The notes under the pieces: generated by a model
Databases searched by the model: none
What the model was told of the DNA's origin: nothing
Seen by the model: only the letters and a program-made list of their open reading frames with translations
In this document: piece by piece, positions 1 to 6,652 of the stretch
How positions within the stretch are numbered: position 1 is the stretch's first letter
Layout: the number at the start of each line of letters is the position of its first letter
Source: a virus
Lineage: Duplodnaviria > Heunggongvirae > Uroviricota > Caudoviricetes
Strand: one strand, 5' to 3'
Virus record (IMG/VR): IMGVR_UViG_2671180921_000008
Coordinates: 1-6,652 of that record
Length of the DNA: 6,652 bases
Position numbers and translations under genes: made by a program

Positions 1-242
1 AATACGGTGCTCCGTTGACGCTTACGCCGAATAAGCTCATCTCTCATGCATTCCGGGCATTCGCTAGGTCTTGAGGCAAACTTAATTGGCCCAGTCGAGT
101 AACGGTTACGCTGCTCAAACTCACCATGTTTTTCACAGATGCCAGTGCCAATTTCTACAGCTGTATGCTCGATAGCAATTGGCGGAGAACTCAATTCTGC
201 AAGTTTTTTCTCAAGTTGGGAGATCTTTTCATCCAGCGTCAT
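1..242 (-). CDS. Hypothetical replication-module protein, N-terminal part only (runs off the window start); sits where lambda has P / the helicase loader
   Basis: Minus-strand ATG at 242..240, 2 nt after the O-like stop (TGA 247..245). Translation MTLDEKISQLEKKLAELSSPPIAIEHTAVEIGTGICEKHGEFEQRNRYSTGPIKFASRPSECPECMRDELIRRKRQRSTV. C-x2-H and C-P-E-C pairs suggest a zinc ribbon. It does not resemble lambda P; function is inferred from position only. Confidence 0.4.
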   Translation of the reverse strand, partial: MTLDEKISQLEKKLAELSSPPIAIEHTAVEIGTGICEKHGEFEQRNRYSTGPIKFASRPSECPECMRDELIRRKRQRSTV

Positions 243-244
243 GT

Positions 245-1120
245 TCACTCCTGCGCCCATGAAGGCATTTCAGTTTGTCCGTAATCTTTGGTGGCAAAGT
301 TTTCCTGCATAGCTCGATGCTGCGGCCTCGGTTGAGATTTCCCCTTTGGAGTCTTGGGCTCAAAAATCCCCTGCCAACCACTGGCGATGCTCTGGTTTAT
401 AATTTCTTCAGGTGTATATCCCTTCCCCAGACTTCTGCTTAGAACGTTGATAGCCTGAGTAACACTTTGCTTAGACTTGATCGACTTACCTATCTCCTTG
501 CGATATGTAACCCACGACAACCATGTTTCTGCTGATAACCAATCAGGCAACTCTGTTTCTAGCGGGTCGAACTTCTGAGAAACTTTTTTGGGGGATATAG
601 GGGGTTTATTAATATTTTCTTTTGTCTTTAAAGAATGTCTTTTGTGTGTCTCTAACTTCGAGACATTGAGTGTCTCTAATTTGGAGACATTTTTTGTCTC
701 TAACTTCGAGACAAAGTTGCTAACTTGGAGACACTTGCTGAATTGCCACGCAGATACCTCAATGTTTACACCGATTTGATTTCCATCCATAAACAGGCAA
801 TTCATTGAAATCAGTTCTTTTTTAGCCTTGTTAACATTCTGCCTTGACAGTCCTGTTAACTGAGCAATTTGCTCATCGGCTATTCGATCTGTTTTCTTAT
901 TGAATCCATATGTTTTCCGGACGTAGGCCAGCATAACTTTCAACTGGCGAGCGGTTAAATCGGCACTTGCGATAGCTTCCAGCAGCTCGTTAGCGAATCT
1001 GGTGTAACCATCATCGATATCAGCCACTCTTCGCTCCTGTTCAACAGGTTCACTCTTCGGCAGGTAAAATACTTCAGCCAGGCTCATTTCCAACCTCCGC
1101 ATCAAAGCATTGGGCTTCAA
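245..1120 (-). CDS. O: Replication initiator, lambda O family (N-terminal iteron-binding domain conserved, C-terminal domain divergent)
   Basis: 291-aa ORF. The segment QERRVADIDDGYTRFANELLEAIASADLTARQLKVMLAYVRKTYGFNKKTDRIADEQ aligns with the lambda O N-terminal domain as I recall it. The ori iterons lie inside the gene, as in lambda. The true start may be ATG 1087..1085, which has a GGAGG 7 nt upstream, rather than 1120. Confidence 0.85.
   Translation of the reverse strand: MKPNALMRRLEMSLAEVFYLPKSEPVEQERRVADIDDGYTRFANELLEAIASADLTARQLKVMLAYVRKTYGFNKKTDRIADEQIAQLTGLSRQNVNKAKKELISMNCLFMDGNQIGVNIEVSAWQFSKCLQVSNFVSKLETKNVSKLETLNVSKLETHKRHSLKTKENINKPPISPKKVSQKFDPLETELPDWLSAETWLSWVTYRKEIGKSIKSKQSVTQAINVLSRSLGKGYTPEEIINQSIASGWQGIFEPKTPKGKSQPRPQHRAMQENFATKDYGQTEMPSWAQE
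648..733. repeat. Replication origin iterons: four 18-bp direct repeats, each an internal inverted repeat (GTCTC...GAGAC), with a flanking AT-rich tract at about 590-647
   Basis: GTCTCTAACTTCGAGACA (648-665), GTCTCTAATTTGGAGACA (672-689), GTCTCTAACTTCGAGACA (696-713), GTTGCTAACTTGGAGACA (716-733), spaced about 24 bp. Inside the O reading frame they encode the repeated VSKLET peptide. The adjacent AT-rich stretch (tttattaatattttcttttgtctttaaagaatg) lies downstream in the O direction, matching lambda ori layout. Confidence 0.75.
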
Positions 1121-1718
1121 GAGACTTAACCATCACCACACTGCCATCTGTATTAATAACTATCGATGAGTTATATTTGCTTATCAGTTGCTTCGCGTAA
1201 TCAATTCCGGCGCGAATAAGGAAATTTTTCACCGCAGGAAGATGACCAACTACACTACCCAGACCTTGCTCTATAAGCTCCTCATTAAGATCAAGCTCAT
1301 TTTCATGGCGAAAAGAAATGAATGAGTCGTAAATTGCGTATTCTGCCGTCTCGCCATTTCTTTCAGGGCCAACCAGCGCCCTTATTTCATTTAGAGATTC
1401 AGAAAGATCATTATCTTCAAGCTTGAAAAACTCTCGATTATCACTAAGCCTCTCTTTTGCAAAGGCTTTATGAATGAGTTTTTCATCTGATGCGGGATTA
1501 TTTGAATGAAAGGCTGCTATCACCTTAAATGGCTTAGGAACGCCAGTAGAGGCTGAAATTTCTTTAGCCCTAACTTCTGGTGAATGCTTAGTCATCCCAA
1601 TCTTATAAATTCCTGGCATGCACTCATTCGAAAGCACATAAACAAAGCCATTTGATTTAAAATCATCTGGCACCTTCATGCTCTTCAGAACCTGGAATTT
1701 GTCATTTTCGTATGTCAT
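1074..1718 (-). CDS. T5orf172 / GIY-YIG-like domain protein (moron between cII/oop and O)
   Basis: 214-aa ORF with AGGAG 6 nt before the ATG. The N-terminal motif GFVYVLSNECMPGIYKIGMT...EVRAKE matches the T5orf172 (MUG113-type GIY-YIG-like) signature as I know it. The C-terminal ~90 aa are unassigned. Lambda has no gene at this position. Confidence 0.65.
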   Translation of the reverse strand: MTYENDKFQVLKSMKVPDDFKSNGFVYVLSNECMPGIYKIGMTKHSPEVRAKEISASTGVPKPFKVIAAFHSNNPASDEKLIHKAFAKERLSDNREFFKLEDNDLSESLNEIRALVGPERNGETAEYAIYDSFISFRHENELDLNEELIEQGLGSVVGHLPAVKNFLIRAGIDYAKQLISKYNSSIVINTDGSVVMVKSLEAQCFDAEVGNEPG

Positions 1719-1731
1719 AATTACTCCTGTG

Positions 1732-1804
1732 GATTGATCCAGTAATTCCCTCAGAATTGCATATCAATTTGCTTAAAATCCTCGGTGGCAGCCGGGGATT
1801 TTTT
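1732..1804 (+). ncRNA. oop: oop-like antisense RNA with intrinsic terminator, overlapping the 3' end of cII
   Basis: GATTGATCCAGTAAT...CCTCAGAA...CCTCGGTGGCAGCCGGGGATTTTTT resembles lambda oop RNA as I recall it. Terminator hairpin 1780-1797 (7 bp, two G-U pairs) followed by a T-run 1799-1804. It is antisense to the cII 3' end. The promoter lies around 1699-1725 (TTGTCA at 1699-1704; the -10 is ambiguous). Confidence 0.5.
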
Positions 1805-2047
1805 CTTTGTGATTTCATCAAGCGCATACTTAAAAGCCCTGCTAATCGGACTGATGTCTGATGCCATTCCGAAAGCACACAAGACCGAAGCAATAAATCT
1901 CCAGTCCGTTCTGCTTATCTTCGATTCATGACAGCCAATCATCTTTGCCAGACCGCGCTGGGTAAGCGTTGACAGGTTGATGAGTAAATCAGTTTCAGCG
2001 CGATCAACGTCGCGCTGTGATAGTTTGCTGTAACTTGTTTGTTCCAT
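1751..2047 (-). CDS. cII: cII-family transcriptional activator (not the lambda allele)
   Basis: 98-aa ORF directly downstream of cro and nutR. The C-terminus KKKSPAATEDFKQIDMQF matches lambda cII KKRPAATERSEQIQMEF, and the central region has the same helix-turn-helix-like layout. Most of the sequence diverges from lambda cII. Confidence 0.8.
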   Translation of the reverse strand: MEQTSYSKLSQRDVDRAETDLLINLSTLTQRGLAKMIGCHESKISRTDWRFIASVLCAFGMASDISPISRAFKYALDEITKKKSPAATEDFKQIDMQF

Positions 2048-2060
2048 TTCTTATGATTTC
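2025..2060 (+). promoter_or_regulatory. Putative pRE (cII-activated promoter) with a TTGC-N6-TTGT repeat
   Basis: TTGCTGTAACTTGT at 2025-2038 resembles the lambda cII site TTGC-N6-TTGC. It overlaps the cII start codon region on the opposite strand, as in lambda. The -10 is not clearly defined. Confidence 0.3.
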
Positions 2061-2074
2061 CAATAGTGAATATT

Positions 2075-2097
2075 ACGCATCTGTTGATGCGTTTTTT
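2075..2097 (+). terminator. Hairpin plus T6 run in the cro-cII intergenic region (intrinsic-terminator-like on plus strand; on the minus strand it lies in the tR1 zone)
   Basis: 7-bp perfect stem ACGCATC (2075-2081) / GATGCGT (2086-2092), 4-nt loop, T-run 2092-2097. Confidence 0.3.
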
Positions 2098-2099
2098 GT

Positions 2100-2137
2100 G
2101 GGGACGAATCATCCCCGACCTGATTGTTTAAAGAGCG
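2100..2137 (-). promoter_or_regulatory. nutR: nutR: boxA CGCTCTTTAA and boxB hairpin GGGGATGATTCGTCCCC
   Basis: On the minus strand: boxA consensus at 2137..2128, an 11-nt spacer, then boxB at 2116..2100. The identical boxB recurs in nutL downstream of pL. Confidence 0.65.
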
Positions 2138-2144
2138 GTGTTAC

Positions 2145-2354
<210 letters not shown>

Positions 2355-2369
2355 TTAGTACATGCAATC

Positions 2370-2439
2370 ATTATCACCGCTAGAGGTAAAATAGTCAACA
2401 CGCACGGTGTTAGATATTTATCCCTTGCGGTGATAGATT
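2370..2439. promoter_or_regulatory. Right operator OR1-OR2-OR3 with divergent promoters pR (toward cro) and pRM (toward cI)
   Basis: OR1 TATCACCGCTAGAGGTA (2372-2388), OR2 CAACACGCACGGTGTTA (2396-2412), OR3 TATCCCTTGCGGTGATA (2419-2435). pR on the minus strand: -35 TTGACT (2398..2393), -10 GATAAT (2375..2370). pRM on the plus strand: -35 TAGATA (2411-2416), 17-bp spacer, -10 TAGATT (2434-2439). The cI ATG at 2446 implies a leaderless transcript, as in lambda. Confidence 0.9.
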
Positions 2440-2442
2440 TAA

Positions 2443-3159
<717 letters not shown>

Positions 3160-3189
3160 AGCACATAGCATTCCTGGATAAAAATACAG

Positions 3190-3232
3190 ATTCCCTTTAT
3201 GGGAAATGAATCTATAATTCCCAAAGAGGGAA
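3190..3232 (+). promoter_or_regulatory. Putative promoter-operator of the toxin-antitoxin cassette: two TTCCC-N5-GGGAA palindromes flanking a TATAAT
   Basis: Palindrome 1 TTCCCTTTATGGGAA (3191-3205); perfect -10 TATAAT (3213-3218); palindrome 2 TTCCCAAAGAGGGAA (3218-3232). This is the usual autoregulated TA operator layout. The -35 is weak. Confidence 0.45.
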
Positions 3233-3244
3233 CTACATCGGATT

Positions 3245-3532
3245 ATGAAGGTCTTAAACGTAGAGAAGCTTCACAGTTTTAGCCGGAAACACAATCAGGC
3301 CAAGGGGGCTTTAGACTCTTGGTATGATGAAGTGAGAAGAGAAAACTGGAAAACGACTCAAGACATACGGAATAGATTTAATTCTGCCGACTTCCTTCCT
3401 GACAACAGGGTAATTTTTAATATAAAAGGCAATAACTATCGGCTCGTTGTCCAAGTTGTTTACCAAGCAGGAATTGTCATAGTTGAAAAAGTTGGAACTC
3501 ATGCAGAGTACGACAAGTGGAGACTTAAATGA
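3245..3532 (+). CDS. higB: HigB-family toxin (ribosome-dependent mRNA interferase, RelE/ParE superfamily)
   Basis: 95-aa ORF. FNIKGNNYRLVVQVVYQAGIVIVEKVGTHAEYD aligns with E. coli HigB (YgjN) FNVGGNELRVVAMVFFESQKCYIREVMTHKEYD along its full length, as I recall that sequence. The stop overlaps the next start (ATGA at 3529-3532). Confidence 0.8.
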   Translation: MKVLNVEKLHSFSRKHNQAKGALDSWYDEVRRENWKTTQDIRNRFNSADFLPDNRVIFNIKGNNYRLVVQVVYQAGIVIVEKVGTHAEYDKWRLK

Positions 3533-4185
3533 ATCGAACTAGCTGGCGCATCATTAAAAATAGTGAAGAGCATGCTGCAGCTATGGAAAGGCTCATTGAA
3601 CTTGCGTCTAGTGATTTACAACCTGGAACTGAAGATTTTGATGAGTTTGAACTACTAGGCTTGCTTATTGAGCACTATGAGTCACGCGAGTTCCCTATGG
3701 ACAAGCCAGACCCCATAGAAGCAATCAAGTTCCGCATGGATCAGCAAGGCCTCTCTTATGCCGACATGAAACAATACATTGGCTCAGCATCTAAAGTATC
3801 TGAGGTCTTAAATCGTAAGCGTCCATTAAGTCTTTCAATGATCCGTAGACTGCATGACGGGCTTGGCATTCCTGCAGATATCTTAATTCAAGATATGAGC
3901 GCAATTGAATGGAGTCTGGTTGACGCTGAGGAAGAAGAAACGACAATGACTAGCGTCATTGTTCAGTGTGAGTCAGCCGCCACATCATCTTCTCCTTATT
4001 ACGCTGAAAAGGCTACAGAATCTTACGTTTCAAAAATGTTGTTCAGCGCAGTAAGGGGTAACGGCGAATGCAAAGAAAAACGGAATGTTTTTTCTTTGAT
4101 AAGTAACTTGTCATCAAGTTTCACAGCAGCTAACAACCTGAATGACGAAATGACTCCTGACGGGAATTACTCATTAGTATCATGA
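3529..4185 (+). CDS. higA: HigA-like HTH antitoxin with a ~95-aa C-terminal extension (candidate chaperone-addiction region)
   Basis: 218-aa ORF. Residues ~1-123 align with E. coli HigA (YgjM): IEAIKFRMDQQGLSYADMKQYIGSASKVSEVLNRKRPLSLSMIRRLHDGLGIPADILIQ versus IAVIRTLMDQYGLTLSDLPEIGSKSMVSRVLSGKRKLTLEHAKKLATRFGISPALFID. Residues ~124-218 are an acidic, Ser-rich extension with aromatic patches (SPYYAEKATESYVSKMLF). Start and stop are both translationally coupled (ATGA) to the neighbours. Confidence 0.75.
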   Translation: MNRTSWRIIKNSEEHAAAMERLIELASSDLQPGTEDFDEFELLGLLIEHYESREFPMDKPDPIEAIKFRMDQQGLSYADMKQYIGSASKVSEVLNRKRPLSLSMIRRLHDGLGIPADILIQDMSAIEWSLVDAEEEETTMTSVIVQCESAATSSSPYYAEKATESYVSKMLFSAVRGNGECKEKRNVFSLISNLSSSFTAANNLNDEMTPDGNYSLVS

Positions 4186-4586
4186 AAATTGAACTCATTA
4201 GCAAAAAAGTTGAACGCTTGGTTATGAAGCAGCTAGAAGCTGATTCAGCGGCAAAAAAAAACCTGAACGCAACCGTTAAGCTGAATAATGAACTTTACAC
4301 TAATGTGAAGGATTCAAAGCTATTTAGAGTGAGATATTTTACCTCCATAACCATTGAAGGTAGACTAGAGATGGACATCACATACGACTTTGATTTTCGG
4401 TCAGAAGATGATTTTTCCCATGAAATGGCAAAATCACATGAGATAAGGTCCATTGCTCCCACTATGGCATATCCCTATATAAAAACATATGCCGAGCAAA
4501 TTATCCTCATGTCAAATCTTGGTAGGTTCAATCTTCCTTACTTTGATTTCTTGACCAATCCCATGGAAACGAACAGCAATAAGTGA
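4182..4586 (+). CDS. SecB-like chaperone (third component of a TAC-type module)
   Basis: 134-aa ORF. YPYIKTYAEQIILMSNLGRFNLPYFDFL aligns with E. coli SecB [31 protein letters not shown], and VKLNNELYTNVKDSKLFRVRYFTSITIEG with SecB [31 protein letters not shown], as I recall SecB. It is coupled to the antitoxin stop by ATGA and has no hydrophobic transmembrane stretch, so it is not RexB-like. Confidence 0.65.
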   Translation: MKIELISKKVERLVMKQLEADSAAKKNLNATVKLNNELYTNVKDSKLFRVRYFTSITIEGRLEMDITYDFDFRSEDDFSHEMAKSHEIRSIAPTMAYPYIKTYAEQIILMSNLGRFNLPYFDFLTNPMETNSNK

Positions 4587-4595
4587 AATCCCCCA

Positions 4596-4621
4596 CCCGG
4601 CCTCAGCGCCGGGTTTTCTTT
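4596..4621 (+). terminator. Rho-independent terminator closing the cI/cassette transcription unit
   Basis: Perfect 6-bp GC stem CCCGGC (4596-4601) / GCCGGG (4608-4613), 6-nt loop, then TTTTCTTT. It lies 10 nt after the last cassette stop, just upstream of OL. Confidence 0.7.
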
Positions 4622-4774
4622 GCCTCTCGATCCCCACACCTAATAACACCATAACCAATTGTATTTATTGAAAAATTTATAGATACAACTTGCTAAATAG
4701 TGCAATTCTGATCCCTCACCTACCAAACAATGCCCCCCCTGCAAAAAATAAATCCATATAAAAAACATACAGAT

Positions 4775-4837
4775 AACCATCTGCGGTGATAAATTATCTC
4801 TGGCGGTGTTGACACACATACCACTAGCGGTGATACT
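4775..4837 (+). promoter_or_regulatory. Left operator OL3-OL2-OL1 with promoter pL (rightward in this window)
   Basis: OL3 AACCATCTGCGGTGATA (4775-4791), OL2 TATCTCTGGCGGTGTTG (4795-4811), OL1 TACCACTAGCGGTGATA (4819-4835). -35 TTGACA (4809-4814), 17-bp spacer, -10 GATACT (4832-4837). Near-identical to the lambda pL/OL region as I recall it. Confidence 0.88.
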
Positions 4838-4882
4838 AAACACATCAGCAGGAAGCTGGAAGCCAAACGGAACAGATTGGCA

Positions 4883-4921
4883 GGCTCTTTAACATTGATG
4901 GAATGGGGATGATTCGTCCCC
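4883..4921 (+). promoter_or_regulatory. nutL: nutL: boxA GGCTCTTTAA and boxB hairpin GGGGATGATTCGTCCCC
   Basis: boxA at 4883-4892, 12-nt spacer, boxB at 4905-4921 (GGGGA/TCCCC stem). boxB is identical to nutR on the other strand and lies about 45-80 nt downstream of the pL start. Confidence 0.65.
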
Positions 4922-5076
4922 ACCAAAGAGAGGTTGGCTTTGGGATTTGATGAATGCGCAGGTCGATGCGCTACCACTTAGCGGTGAGCACCTGCATTTT
5001 GGGCAGGATGGATAGCCGCAATAAGGGGATCGACACATGACATCAAATCACCAAAGTCAATCATCGGAGGTATCCA

Positions 5077-5283
5077 GTGAAAGCAAGAGAGATTCGCAAA
5101 CTCGAACGCGCTCGTAAGCACAAAGAGGCGACAGCAAAACGTAAAAATATTGACCGTGTTTCAATGGTGGTTTCGCTAGCAGGAGCGAATAGGAAGAAGG
5201 TTGAATGTGGTTCGTGCTGCCTGCCAAACGTAGCCATTTACGCGGCAGGCTACCGGAAATCAAAACAACTGACAGCAAGATGA
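5077..5283 (+). CDS. N: N-like transcription antiterminator, N-terminal arginine-rich part; apparently truncated (see the out-of-frame C-terminal remnant)
   Basis: GTG start at 5077 with GGAGG 6 nt upstream. N-terminus MKAREIRKLERARKHKEATAKRKNIDR is an arginine/lysine-rich motif typical of N-family boxB-binding peptides. First gene after pL-nutL. Ends at TGA 5281-5283 after 68 codons. Confidence 0.6.
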   Translation: MKAREIRKLERARKHKEATAKRKNIDRVSMVVSLAGANRKKVECGSCCLPNVAIYAAGYRKSKQLTAR

Positions 5284-5285
5284 CT

Positions 5286-5333
5286 TGTGTTGGTCGCCAG
5301 AAAATGAAATTAGGCAGCAAACCACTTATTTGA
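5286..5333 (+). pseudogene. N: Out-of-frame 3' segment encoding a lambda-N-like C-terminus (CVGRQKMKLGSKPLI-stop)
   Basis: In the frame offset by 2 nt from the N ORF, 5286-5330 reads CVGRQKMKLGSKPLI then TGA. Lambda N ends ...TCSGRQKIKGKSIPLI as I recall it. This frame is closed upstream by TGA at 5202-5204. Confidence 0.5.
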
Positions 5334-5341
5334 GGTGATAT

Positions 5342-5428
5342 ATGGAAGAAGAATTTGAAGAGTTCGAAGAGCATCCTCAGGATGTGATGGAACAATACCA
5401 GGACTACCCTTATGACTACGACTATTGA
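5342..5428 (+). CDS. Small acidic 28-aa ORF (MEEEFEEFEEHPQDVMEQYQDYPYDYDY), possibly the lambda orf28 equivalent
   Basis: ATG at 5342 with GAGGTGA 4-5 nt upstream. It overlaps the start of the next ORF. Below the length cutoff of the ORF track. Function unknown. Confidence 0.4.
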   Translation: MEEEFEEFEEHPQDVMEQYQDYPYDYDY

Positions 5429-5612
5429 TAAGAATCAATGGTGTGGACAATTCAAGCGATGCAATGGATGCAAGCTGCAATCGGAATGCATGGTTAAGCC
5501 TGAAGAAATGTTTCCTGTAATGGAAGATGGGAAATATGTCGATAAATGGGCAATACGAACGACGGCAATGATTGCCAGAGAACTTGGTAAACAGAACAAC
5601 AAGGCTGCCTGA
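5412..5612 (+). CDS. ral: Small Cys-rich protein, 66 aa; tentatively Ral-like (restriction alleviation) by length and position
   Basis: 66-aa ORF MTTTIDKNQWCGQFKRCNGCKLQSECMV... with C-x5-C-x2-C-x5-C spacing. Same length and early-left-operon position as lambda Ral. I cannot verify sequence identity from memory with certainty. Confidence 0.45.
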   Translation: MTTTIDKNQWCGQFKRCNGCKLQSECMVKPEEMFPVMEDGKYVDKWAIRTTAMIARELGKQNNKAA

Positions 5613-5639
5613 TGGTGGCCTTTATTTTTAAGGAGCTAT

Positions 5640-5882
5640 ATGAAAATTAAAACTATGGCAGCAAGCCCATTAAGCGGTCGTATTTTTCAAGGAACATTAA
5701 ACACTGAAAAAGGAATGTGGGTAGGAAAGAAAGAAGATGTCACCGAACAAGCGATTAAGGCAGTAACTGAACACCTGATGATAAAAGACCGGAAATATGC
5801 ATACGAAACGAATGATGGCAAATGGGTGATAATAATGCATCAACTGGTTGATGAATTACCAGAAGAGTTTATTGCTGATTAA
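5640..5882 (+). CDS. Hypothetical protein, 80 aa
   Basis: ATG at 5640 with AGGAG 4 nt upstream. No motif recognised. Confidence 0.5.
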   Translation: MKIKTMAASPLSGRIFQGTLNTEKGMWVGKKEDVTEQAIKAVTEHLMIKDRKYAYETNDGKWVIIMHQLVDELPEEFIAD

Positions 5883-6008
5883 AATTATTTTGGCATAAAC
5901 AACAGAATAAACACTGCACTGTGTATTCATTCCAACGAGTGAATACACGGAGCAATGTCGCTCGTAACTAAACAGGAGCCGACTTGTTCTGATTATTGGA
6001 AATCTTCT

Positions 6009-6036
6009 TTGCCCTCTAATGTGAGGGCGATTTTTA
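6009..6036 (+). terminator. Rho-independent terminator (tL-type, expected to be read through under N antitermination)
   Basis: Stem GCCCTC (6011-6016) / GAGGGC (6023-6028), extendable by two pairs, 6-nt loop, T-run 6031-6035. Confidence 0.55.
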
Positions 6037-6055
6037 TCTATGAGGATATGAATAG

Positions 6056-6211
6056 ATGTCAAACATCAAAAAATACATCATTGATTACGACTGGAAAGCA
6101 TCAATAGAAATTGAAATTGACCATGACGTAATGATAGAGGAAAAACTTCACCAGATTAATAATTCTGGTCAGACTCTGAATACCGACTCAATAAACACGG
6201 CTCTGTATTAA
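6056..6211 (+). CDS. Hypothetical protein, 51 aa (possibly the 5' half of a frameshift-split gene)
   Basis: ATG at 6056 with GAGGA 9 nt upstream. MSNIKKYIIDYDWKASIEIEIDHDVMIEEKLHQINNSGQTLNTDSINTALY. Below the ORF-track cutoff. Confidence 0.35.
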   Translation: MSNIKKYIIDYDWKASIEIEIDHDVMIEEKLHQINNSGQTLNTDSINTALY

Positions 6212-6225
6212 ATGCTGTATTAATC

Positions 6226-6423
6226 ATGCTGGAGCAACATGCTCTGCTTATAGCAATTTCAAGCGACTTAAATGCATATGGTGTTGTGTGTGAGTTCGAC
6301 TGGAATGATGGAAATGGTCAGGAAGGATGGCCTCCAATGGATGGTAGTGAAGGAATAAGAATTACCGATATCGATACATCAGGAATATTTGATTCAGATG
6401 ATATGACTATCAAGGCCGCCTGA
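6226..6423 (+). CDS. Hypothetical acidic protein, 65 aa (possibly the 3' half of a split gene)
   Basis: ORF from the track. Its frame is already open from 6163, overlapping the 3' end of the preceding ORF in a different frame. Confidence 0.4.
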   Translation: MLEQHALLIAISSDLNAYGVVCEFDWNDGNGQEGWPPMDGSEGIRITDIDTSGIFDSDDMTIKAA

Positions 6424-6448
6424 GCGCGGCGTTACCGCATACCAATTA

Positions 6449-6469
6449 CGCTTCACTCGAGGCGTTTTT
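6449..6469 (+). terminator. Weak terminator-like hairpin with T5 run upstream of cIII
   Basis: Stem CGCTTC (6449-6454) / GAGGCG (6459-6464) with one G-U pair, 4-nt loop, T-run 6465-6469. Confidence 0.3.
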
Positions 6470-6495
6470 CGTTATGTATAAATAAGGAGCACACC

Positions 6496-6636
6496 CTGCA
6501 ATATGCCATTGCAGGGTGGCCTGTTGCTGGCTGCCCTTCCGAATCTTTACTTGAACGAATCACCCGTAAATTACGTGACGGATGGAAACGCCTTATCGAC
6601 ATACTTAATCAGCCAGGAGTTCCCAAAAATGGATAA
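6496..6636 (+). CDS. cIII: cIII-like ORF (lambda cIII homolog) lacking an ATG at the expected start (CTG) and ending at a TAA earlier than I recall for lambda
   Basis: Frame reads (L)QYAIAGWPVAGCPSESLLERITRKLRDGWKRLIDILNQPGVPKNG then TAA. This matches lambda cIII MQYAIAGWPVAGCPSESLLERITRKLRDGWKRLIDILNQPGVPKNG... as I recall it. AAGGAG (6484-6489) sits 6 nt before the CTG at 6496. The TAA at 6634-6636 coincides with codon 3 of the overlapping kil-like frame. Confidence 0.5.
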   Translation: MQYAIAGWPVAGCPSESLLERITRKLRDGWKRLIDILNQPGVPKNG

Positions 6637-6652
6637 AACACTTATGGCTATC
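6629..6652 (+). CDS. kil: kil-like ORF, first 8 codons only (MDKTLMAI...), overlapping the cIII 3' end
   Basis: ATG at 6629 with AGGAG 9 nt upstream. The N-terminus resembles lambda Kil (MDQTLMAI...) as I recall it, and lambda kil overlaps cIII in the same way. It runs off the window end. Confidence 0.35.

Follow-up and report, generated by a model that had tools for sequence, protein, structure and literature searches.

The closest described relative of the locus analysed here is HigBAC of Escherichia coli NT1F31, an anti-phage toxin-antitoxin-chaperone (TAC) system that a lambdoid prophage carries 3' of cI, at the locus of RexAB (Mets et al. 2024, bioRxiv 10.1101/2024.02.24.581848). The antitoxin HigA of NT1F31 carries a C-terminal chaperone-addiction tail (ChAD) of 96 amino acids (residues 122-218), more than twice as long as the ChAD of the Mtb system, and deletion of residues 122-218 makes it independent of the chaperone. 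Recognition by the chaperone HigC is mediated by four aromatic residues, W128, F158, F188 and Y214; the mutant affected in all four was stable without HigC, and F188A was the sole single substitution with a phenotype (Mets et al. 2024). In an AlphaFold-Multimer model, which is not a solved structure, the ChAD wraps around the whole HigC tetramer, and the four anchors, spaced by about 30 residues, fit into four equivalent pockets made up of Y39, N41, R49 and D71, an arrangement that accounts for the length of the ChAD (Mets et al. 2024). The loss of HigA was independent of ClpXP, Lon and HslVU. The system is triggered by the major tail protein of lambda, gpV, which competes with the ChAD for HigC: escape mutations were found in gpV, gpV fragments bound HigC in ITC and competed with a ChAD peptide, and HigC grafted onto CmdTA carried the sensing over. 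NT1F31 HigBAC defends against lambda-vir and Bas25 (Mets et al. 2024). The ChADs described in 2016 were those of Mtb HigA1, with about 45-46 amino acids, and three others of 30-41 amino acids (Bordes et al. 2016, PMC5105189).

The DNA studied here, referred to as the window, is the whole stretch of 6,652 nucleotides at positions 1 to 6,652 of IMG/VR virus record IMGVR_UViG_2671180921_000008, and it is the immunity region of a lambdoid E. coli prophage. The minus strand encodes an O-type replication gene (245-1120), a T5orf172/MUG113 gene (1074-1718), cII (1751-2047) and cro (2145-2345). The genes on the plus strand begin with cI (2446-3159), whose product has HTH_3 and Peptidase_S24 matches. 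It is followed, all on the plus strand, by the three genes considered below, by an intrinsic-terminator hairpin with a T-run (4595-4614, from the terminator scan), by a pL-like promoter (TTGACA-17-GATACT, 4809-4837), by an ORF matching the N-peptide family (5077-5283), by ral (5412-5612) and by the cIII thermoregulator RNA (6483-6541). The Pfam match of the N ORF is confined to positions 44-100, and in the window DUF2528 is split across two frames.

The three genes, which lie on one strand in the order toxin, antitoxin, SecB-like chaperone, are higB (3245-3532, plus strand), higA (3529-4185, plus strand) and higC (4182-4586, plus strand), the third gene of the cassette. Both junctions are 4-nt ATGA stop/start overlaps. 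The higB product, 95 amino acids long, is a RelE-fold ribosome-dependent RNase toxin (Pfam HigB_toxin, E 2.8e-30; PADLOC PD-Lambda-2_A, E 1e-43), 97% identical to NT1F31 HigB. HigA has 218 and HigC, a SecB-like TAC chaperone, 134 amino acids. NCBIfam gave no match for any of the three proteins, and no Rfam RNA family was found within the cassette. The cassette lies 3' of cI and is followed by the terminator, the pL-like promoter and the N-peptide ORF, a layout shared by related loci. The terminator at 4595-4614, directly 3' of higC, constitutes the conserved right-hand boundary of the cargo slot: about 700 further E. coli genomes share no part of the query other than the approximately 55 nt at 4595-4650, a segment that lies under the 3' end of rexB in lambda lysogens. 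The HigBAC cassette thus occupies the slot that holds rexAB in lambda. No promoter-like site was found in the gap between cI and higB (3160-3244). Judging from this and from the gene order, the cassette is probably co-transcribed with cI and would then be expressed in the lysogen. A promoter-like site at 3920-3947, in the tail coding region (9 of 12 matches), was dismissed, as the sites observed regionally (3) were fewer than expected (5.1).

We consider it very probable that residues 123-218 of HigA are the ChAD of a prophage-borne HigB-HigA-HigC TAC anti-phage system, which is an allelic variant of NT1F31 HigBAC. This reading draws on the anatomy of the tail, its predicted disorder, the SecB fold of the HigC model, the co-occurrence of tail and chaperone and the conservation of anchors and pockets, all observed in the present analysis. 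Chaperone dependence, triggering by gpV and defence would carry over to the window allele by analogy with the orthologous system, whose HigA and HigC are 93% and 88% identical. The feature itself is real and already known, having been published as the ChAD of HigBAC.

Codons 1-122 of higA (3529-3894, plus strand) encode the folded HigA antitoxin/HTH domain, and codons 123-218 with the stop codon (3895-4185, plus strand) encode the ChAD tail. Within the folded domain the Pfam HTH_3 match covers residues 67-118, and the part of the E. coli HigA structures 5ifg and 5ycl that aligns to residues 53-119 is the far C-terminal end of these 138-residue proteins. An earlier note on this DNA, made from the letters alone, had described an extension of about 95 residues past the HTH domain at 3898-4185. 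These coordinates are exact: from the first base of codon 124 at 3898 to the last base of the stop codon at 4185 there are 95 codons and the stop. That note was right in placing the end of HigA homology at the ...ILIQD motif, and off by one in the numbering, since the last residue is D122 and not 123; 96 residues follow. Its description of the tail as acidic, Ser/Thr-rich and provided with aromatic patches agrees with the composition (S 17.7%, E 11.5%, T 7.3%, N 7.3%; 14 D/E against 6 K/R; net charge -8) and with the eight aromatic residues, among them SPYYAEKATESYVSKMLF.

In AlphaFold2 predictions based on a 44-sequence alignment, residues 1-123 of HigA form seven helices with pLDDT above 90, whereas residues 127-218 have pLDDT of about 40 and no secondary structure. 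The Uversky charge-hydropathy measure places the tail on the 'folded' side, so that the disorder call rests on AlphaFold2 and on the literature. The extension is accordingly predicted to be intrinsically disordered and not a folded domain. The tail DNA has no direct or tandem repeats that would point to a duplication of the four motifs.

The AlphaFold2 model of HigC (pLDDT 86.7, pTM 0.81) consists of four strands and a long helix. Its best Foldseek matches were 5MTW (Mtb Rv1957 with ChAD peptide) and the SecB proteins of E. coli and H. influenzae, with TM values of 0.72-0.76 and E of about 3e-7. HigC also matches the PADLOC profile PD-T4-9_C, which represents CmdC, the chaperone of CmdTAC (E 2.8e-11). 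At the level of sequence, no SecB signal was obtained for HigC by Pfam (even at E <=10), NCBIfam, PDB phmmer or PDB profile search, and the SecB assignment therefore rests on the predicted structure and on the CmdC profile. Pfam SecB (PF02556) does match 3 of 20 HigC homologues, with a best E of 2.2e-4. The pocket residues Y39, N41, R49 and D71 are all present in the window; N41, R49 and D71 do not vary across 20 homologues, at least 90% of which keep Y39. Model confidence is low in loop 16-33 (mean pLDDT 63 for residues 21-30). On the strength of the model, HigC is a divergent TAC-type SecB paralogue. It differs from housekeeping SecB in its context, as it is encoded in a toxin-antitoxin operon instead of the order yibN-grxC-secB-gpsA, and in falling below the Pfam SecB threshold.

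The association between tail and chaperone was examined in 80 genome loci recovered with the HigA N-domain alone, to which loci fetched for individual long-tailed proteins were added. A HigC homologue (E 2.6e-34 or better) was found directly downstream in all 12 loci with an intact tail of 62-123 amino acids, and in none of the 79 loci with other HigA tails, either short or of about 280 residues (Fisher p = 3e-15). Among the 80 N-domain loci most tails had at most about 30 residues (four were between 32 and 101), 12 had about 280 and one had 96, and it was only at this 96-residue-tail locus that a HigC homologue was encoded. The tails of about 280 residues are a PD-lambda-2B-type peptidase fusion. 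The lengths of the top 120 HigA homologues are bimodal, with 120-139 amino acids in one group and 190-229 in the other. Short homologues of 122-135 amino acids, about 60-65% identical over the N-domain, stop 1-30 residues past the HTH, whereas the long ones have tails of 62-126 amino acids. The earlier note had taken the extension for a destabilising TAC-type segment bound by a SecB-like chaperone. The SecB fold of the HigC model and the co-occurrence of tail and chaperone favour this assignment, and published experiments have demonstrated it for the 93%-identical orthologue.

Three candidates for a naturally short HigA were rejected. The Klebsiella copy P0019 is cut after E136 by an ISL3 insertion, P0051 is located in a decayed Serratia symbiotica locus, and P0016 is N-terminally mis-called in an indel-ridden assembly. 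In the ISL3-cut Klebsiella copy HigC is lost and higB is intact, which is consistent with chaperone independence once the tail is lost. The truncation near residue 125 suggested in the earlier note as a test for chaperone independence has in effect been published for NT1F31, in the form of the 122-218 deletion cited above.

The four published anchor positions are occupied by aromatic residues in the window. The W128 codon (3910-3912, plus strand), anchor 1, is in an EWS motif and corresponds to the published W128; this position is aromatic in 95% of 39 long homologues. For the Y158 codon (4000-4002, plus strand), anchor 2, which is F158 in NT1F31, the value is 64%; for the F188 codon (4090-4092, plus strand), anchor 3, in the published aggregation-prone patch, 59%; and for the Y214 codon (4168-4170, plus strand), anchor 4, in the C-terminal motif D-x-x-[YF]-S-L-[VI]-S, 90%. 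A weaker aromatic peak is seen at tail position 166 in the same 39 homologues. In a set of 79 long tails, an [ED]W motif was found 6 residues past the HTH in 75 and the C-terminal aromatic residue in 74. W128 of the EW motif and the last aromatic residue are separated by a median of 86 residues, and in most cases by 77-97, although the intervening sequence has diverged past recognition; outside the anchors, tail column identity in the 39 long homologues is mostly 0.15-0.4. In the HigA N-domain the dN/dS ratio is 0-0.03, compared with 0.23-0.56 in the ChAD. Between the window and NT1F31 the numbers of non-synonymous and synonymous differences are 0:8 in the N-domain versus 15:7 in the ChAD (p = 0.002). 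Positive selection on the ChAD was considered and rejected, the values of 0.23-0.56 indicating relaxed constraint. Taken together, dN/dS and conservation show the pattern of a disordered region with few anchor residues. For HigC loop 16-33, dN/dS values of about 1 were confined to the two closest pairs, in which the sites are very few.

The window allele resembles NT1F31 HigBAC in having the same three genes in an ATGA-coupled operon, the same slot 3' of cI and a 96-aa ChAD. W128, F188 and Y214 of HigA, as well as Y39, N41, R49 and D71 of HigC, are kept, and residues 1-138 of HigA are identical. DNA identity over 3200-4650 is 94.9%; at the protein level it is 97% for HigB, 93% for HigA and 88% for HigC, and the lengths are the same (95, 218 and 134 amino acids). 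Codons 1-138 of higA contain 12 synonymous-codon differences. The two systems differ conservatively at position 158, where the window has Y and NT1F31 has F, and all 15 HigA substitutions are within residues 139-218 of the ChAD. HigC has 16 substitutions, nine of which are in loop 16-33. At the C-terminus of HigA the window has YSLVS, the family consensus, whereas NT1F31 ends in YLLLP, so that the last four residues are SLVS in one and LLLP in the other. The window allele is rare: an identity of about 99% is reached in five complete E. coli genomes, and the common allele, found in Stx phages, O26 and NT1F31, is 94.8-94.9% identical to the window.

By analogy with the NT1F31 work, the system would function as follows. 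Synthesis of HigB, HigA and HigC would be translationally coupled through the ATGA overlaps, and the disordered tail would render free HigA unstable. In the uninfected cell the tetrameric HigC would grip the tail by W128, Y158, F188 and Y214, with roughly one anchor per subunit, and HigA held in this way would survive and neutralise the RNase HigB. Once a susceptible siphovirus infects the cell, one of its nascent structural proteins (gpV for the NT1F31 allele) would compete with the tail for the HigC pockets; unprotected HigA would be lost, and HigB would stop translation and abort the infection. In such a scheme the sensor would be HigC, and the tail a resident client out-competed by the phage protein.

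Three other explanations of the extension were weighed against its being a ChAD. One is that the ORF owes its length to an artefact, in which an indel or a lost stop codon fused a normal HigA of 125 residues to a downstream frame. Some other genes of the window do look broken, namely the partial N and the split DUF2528. However, HigA has 218 residues in all four E. coli loci that were aligned. Of 5,426 complete E. coli genomes, 88 carry the cassette, as do 30 phage records, many of which are from Stx-converting phages. Homologues of 207-229 amino acids, with identities down to 45-47%, occur in Klebsiella, Salmonella, Serratia, Citrobacter, Pectobacterium and other genera, hold the frame to the end and keep the motif D-x-x-[YF]-[SAT]-L-[VI]-S at their extreme C-terminus. 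PHROG 11202, a profile of 218 positions, is matched by HigA end to end, and the chance of a 95-codon open frame is only about 0.002 (0.0026 from base composition, 0.0016 from 20,000 shuffles). The earlier note had named a stop near codon 125 as the sign of such a fusion, and there is none in related intact sequences. The homologue sequences already refute this explanation, and we give it almost no credence. The extension might, alternatively, fold as a conserved domain of its own with a different activity, like the peptidase domain of PD-lambda-2, a possibility that the earlier note had also named. Fusion of the HigA N-domain to a C-terminal region of about 280 amino acids, seen in 12 of the 80 loci and in PD-Lambda-2_B, indicates that the HigA module accepts functional C-terminal fusions. 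Against this, residues 124-218 gave no domain match in Pfam, NCBIfam or PADLOC, and a word-index-free phmmer search with the tail alone against 1.84 billion representatives returned only HigA relatives and compositional matches to giant Ser/Thr-rich, low-complexity proteins. The low pLDDT, the lack of predicted secondary structure and the poor column identity outside the anchors likewise speak against a folded domain, which we regard as very improbable.

The remaining explanation is that the tail itself has a further function, for example as a phage sensor, a phage factor binding or modifying the tail and not the chaperone. The earlier note had suggested this because the extension seemed longer than any described ChAD. 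That comparison holds against the 2016 literature (30-46 aa), relative to which the tail is 2-3 times longer, and fails against the 96-aa ChAD of Mets et al. 2024, whose length is explained by the matching of four anchors to four chaperone subunits. The clustering of all 15 allele differences in residues 139-218, a ChAD dN/dS 10-20 times the N-domain value and the conserved C-terminal [YF]-S-L-[VI]-S motif could also be taken as signs of an additional role. The dN/dS of the ChAD is nevertheless below 1 and carries no signal of positive selection. In the NT1F31 work, moreover, escape mutations map to gpV, it is HigC that gpV fragments bind, with the ChAD as the competing client, and sensing was transferred to CmdTA with HigC. 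A sensory function of the tail is therefore improbable, and the preferred reading remains that of a ChAD serving as the client of HigC.

What the window adds to Mets et al. 2024 is a natural allelic series only, in which the folded domain of HigA is invariant and the ChAD and one HigC loop are variable. With substitutions in both the ChAD and HigC, the trigger range and the turnover of the tail could differ from those of NT1F31. From the sequences one may go further and propose that the minor allele is functionally distinct, co-diversification of the ChAD with HigC loop 16-33 having led to another trigger spectrum and, separately, the C-terminal [YF]-S-L-[VI]-S serving as a degron for the clearing of HigA; we think this rather unlikely. 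The allelic series could help to map trigger specificity and to seek the protease that clears HigA. For annotation, the PGAP/RefSeq names 'helix-turn-helix domain-containing protein' and 'hypothetical protein' can be replaced by HigA (with ChAD) and HigC, components of an anti-phage TAC system that has been validated.

Comparison with other known systems places the cassette among several partly related ones. It shares with the Mtb TAC system (HigB1-HigA1-Rv1957) the order of a toxin, an antitoxin with a disordered C-terminal ChAD and a SecB-fold chaperone; in both, aromatic residues are needed for chaperone recognition, and the HigC model superposes on 5MTW (TM 0.72-0.76). The Mtb ChAD has about 45 amino acids and contains aromatic-plus-basic motifs as well as a Val-Ala degron for ClpXP (Bordes et al. 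2016, PMC5105189; Guillet et al. 2019, PMC6377645; Mets et al. 2024, bioRxiv 10.1101/2024.02.24.581848). The tail in the window differs in being 96 amino acids long and acidic (net -8), with anchors preceded by acidic or polar residues, and the two chaperones are just 16-17% identical. CmdTAC/PD-T4-9 is likewise an anti-phage TAC system with a homologous SecB-like chaperone, whereas its antitoxin is unrelated to HigA. Its toxin is an mRNA ADP-ribosyltransferase, it protects against T-even phages, and an Ala-Ala degron for ClpXP forms the end of CmdA (Vassallo et al. 2022, PMC9519451; Vassallo et al. 2024, PMC11618068). PD-lambda-2 is a tripartite anti-lambda system with a homologous HigB and a homologous HigA N-domain. 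Window HigA matches PADLOC PD-Lambda-2_B with E 3e-50, only at positions 3-125 of the 402-position profile. PD-lambda-2B has a C-terminal peptidase domain instead of a ChAD, and the window tail has no peptidase domain. The third gene of PD-lambda-2 is P4-antitoxin-like, not SecB-like (Vassallo et al. 2022, PMC9519451). Lambda RexAB, finally, shares with HigBAC the cargo slot between cI and the conserved terminator/pL/N region, while its proteins and mechanism are unrelated to those of HigBAC.

When the higA and higC genes (3529-4586) were compared with their Klebsiella counterparts at locus L090 (2501-3570), synonymous divergence was only 0.27 in the part encoding the chaperone-addiction tail (ChAD) of HigA, as against 0.96 in the part encoding the N-domain, and in higC it was saturated. 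This difference between the ChAD on the one hand and the N-domain and higC on the other suggests recombination breakpoints within higA, and thus a ChAD tail that is swapped as a module.

Two further forms of the tail were found among the homologues. In a Klebsiella pneumoniae locus (L087, 2501-4311) HigA is cut after E136 by an ISL3-family insertion, and the remainder of the ChAD is gone together with higC, with higB left intact. The locus thus represents a natural deletion of the ChAD, and it is consistent with independence of the chaperone upon loss of the tail. The other form is a subclass of 192-aa HigA proteins, represented by Klebsiella locus L093 (2501-3519) and by the homologues P0048, P0065 and P0068-P0070. 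Their tail is shorter, 73 aa, and 62-66 residues separate the EW motif, [ED]W at the W128 anchor, from the last aromatic residue. At L093, the only locus of this subclass that was checked, a HigC homologue is still present downstream, so the 73-aa tail may represent a type of ChAD in which the number of anchors is reduced.

At the very end of the tail (HigA residues 215-218, window 4171-4182) the window encodes SLVS, which is the family consensus, and the published allele of E. coli NT1F31 has LLLP. Nine of the 16 HigC differences between these two alleles fall in the loop of residues 16-33 (window 4227-4280), where dN/dS is approximately 1 in the closest pairs; within this loop, residues 21-30 have an average pLDDT of 63 in the predicted structure.

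The terminator scan placed a strong hairpin terminator on the (+) strand directly 3' of higC (4595-4614). Within 3200-4650, the approximately 55 nt at 4595-4650, hairpin included, are the only portion common to about 700 further E. coli genomes, and in lambda lysogens the 3' end of rexB overlies the equivalent segment. The cargo slot downstream of cI, in which different defence cassettes are exchanged, appears to have its conserved right-hand border in this segment. No complete E. coli genome was found to match 4587-5420 with at least 80% coverage.

Antiterminator N (4840-5333) looks broken or mosaic: the Pfam N_peptide match of ORF 5077-5283 is limited to positions 44-100, and a lambda-N-like C-terminus (...TCVGRQKMKLGSKPLI) lies in a different frame at 5205-5333. 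It is followed on the (+) strand by the antirestriction gene ral (5412-5612). The DUF2528 (lambda ea10-like) region at 6056-6423 consists of two ORFs in differing frames, 6056-6211 and 6226-6423, which align to successive portions of the family, probably reflecting a frameshift or a pseudogene. The cIII thermoregulator RNA (Rfam Lambda_thermo, 81 bits) was detected at 6483-6541 (+).

On the replication side, a 214-aa T5orf172/MUG113 (GIY-YIG-like) gene is located between cII and the replication gene O (1074-1718, (-) strand) and overlaps the start of O by 47 nt. Lambda has no gene at this position.

A second anti-lambda system, the likewise tripartite PD-lambda-2, employs the same HigB and HigA N-domain module (window 3245-3903). 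In place of the ChAD carried by HigA of the window, its HigA domain has a C-terminal fusion partner of approximately 280 aa, described as a peptidase by Vassallo et al. (2022, PMC9519451). The form with the C-terminal fusion of about 280 aa was present in 12 of the 80 genome loci (L006, L009, L010, L012 and L016 among them).
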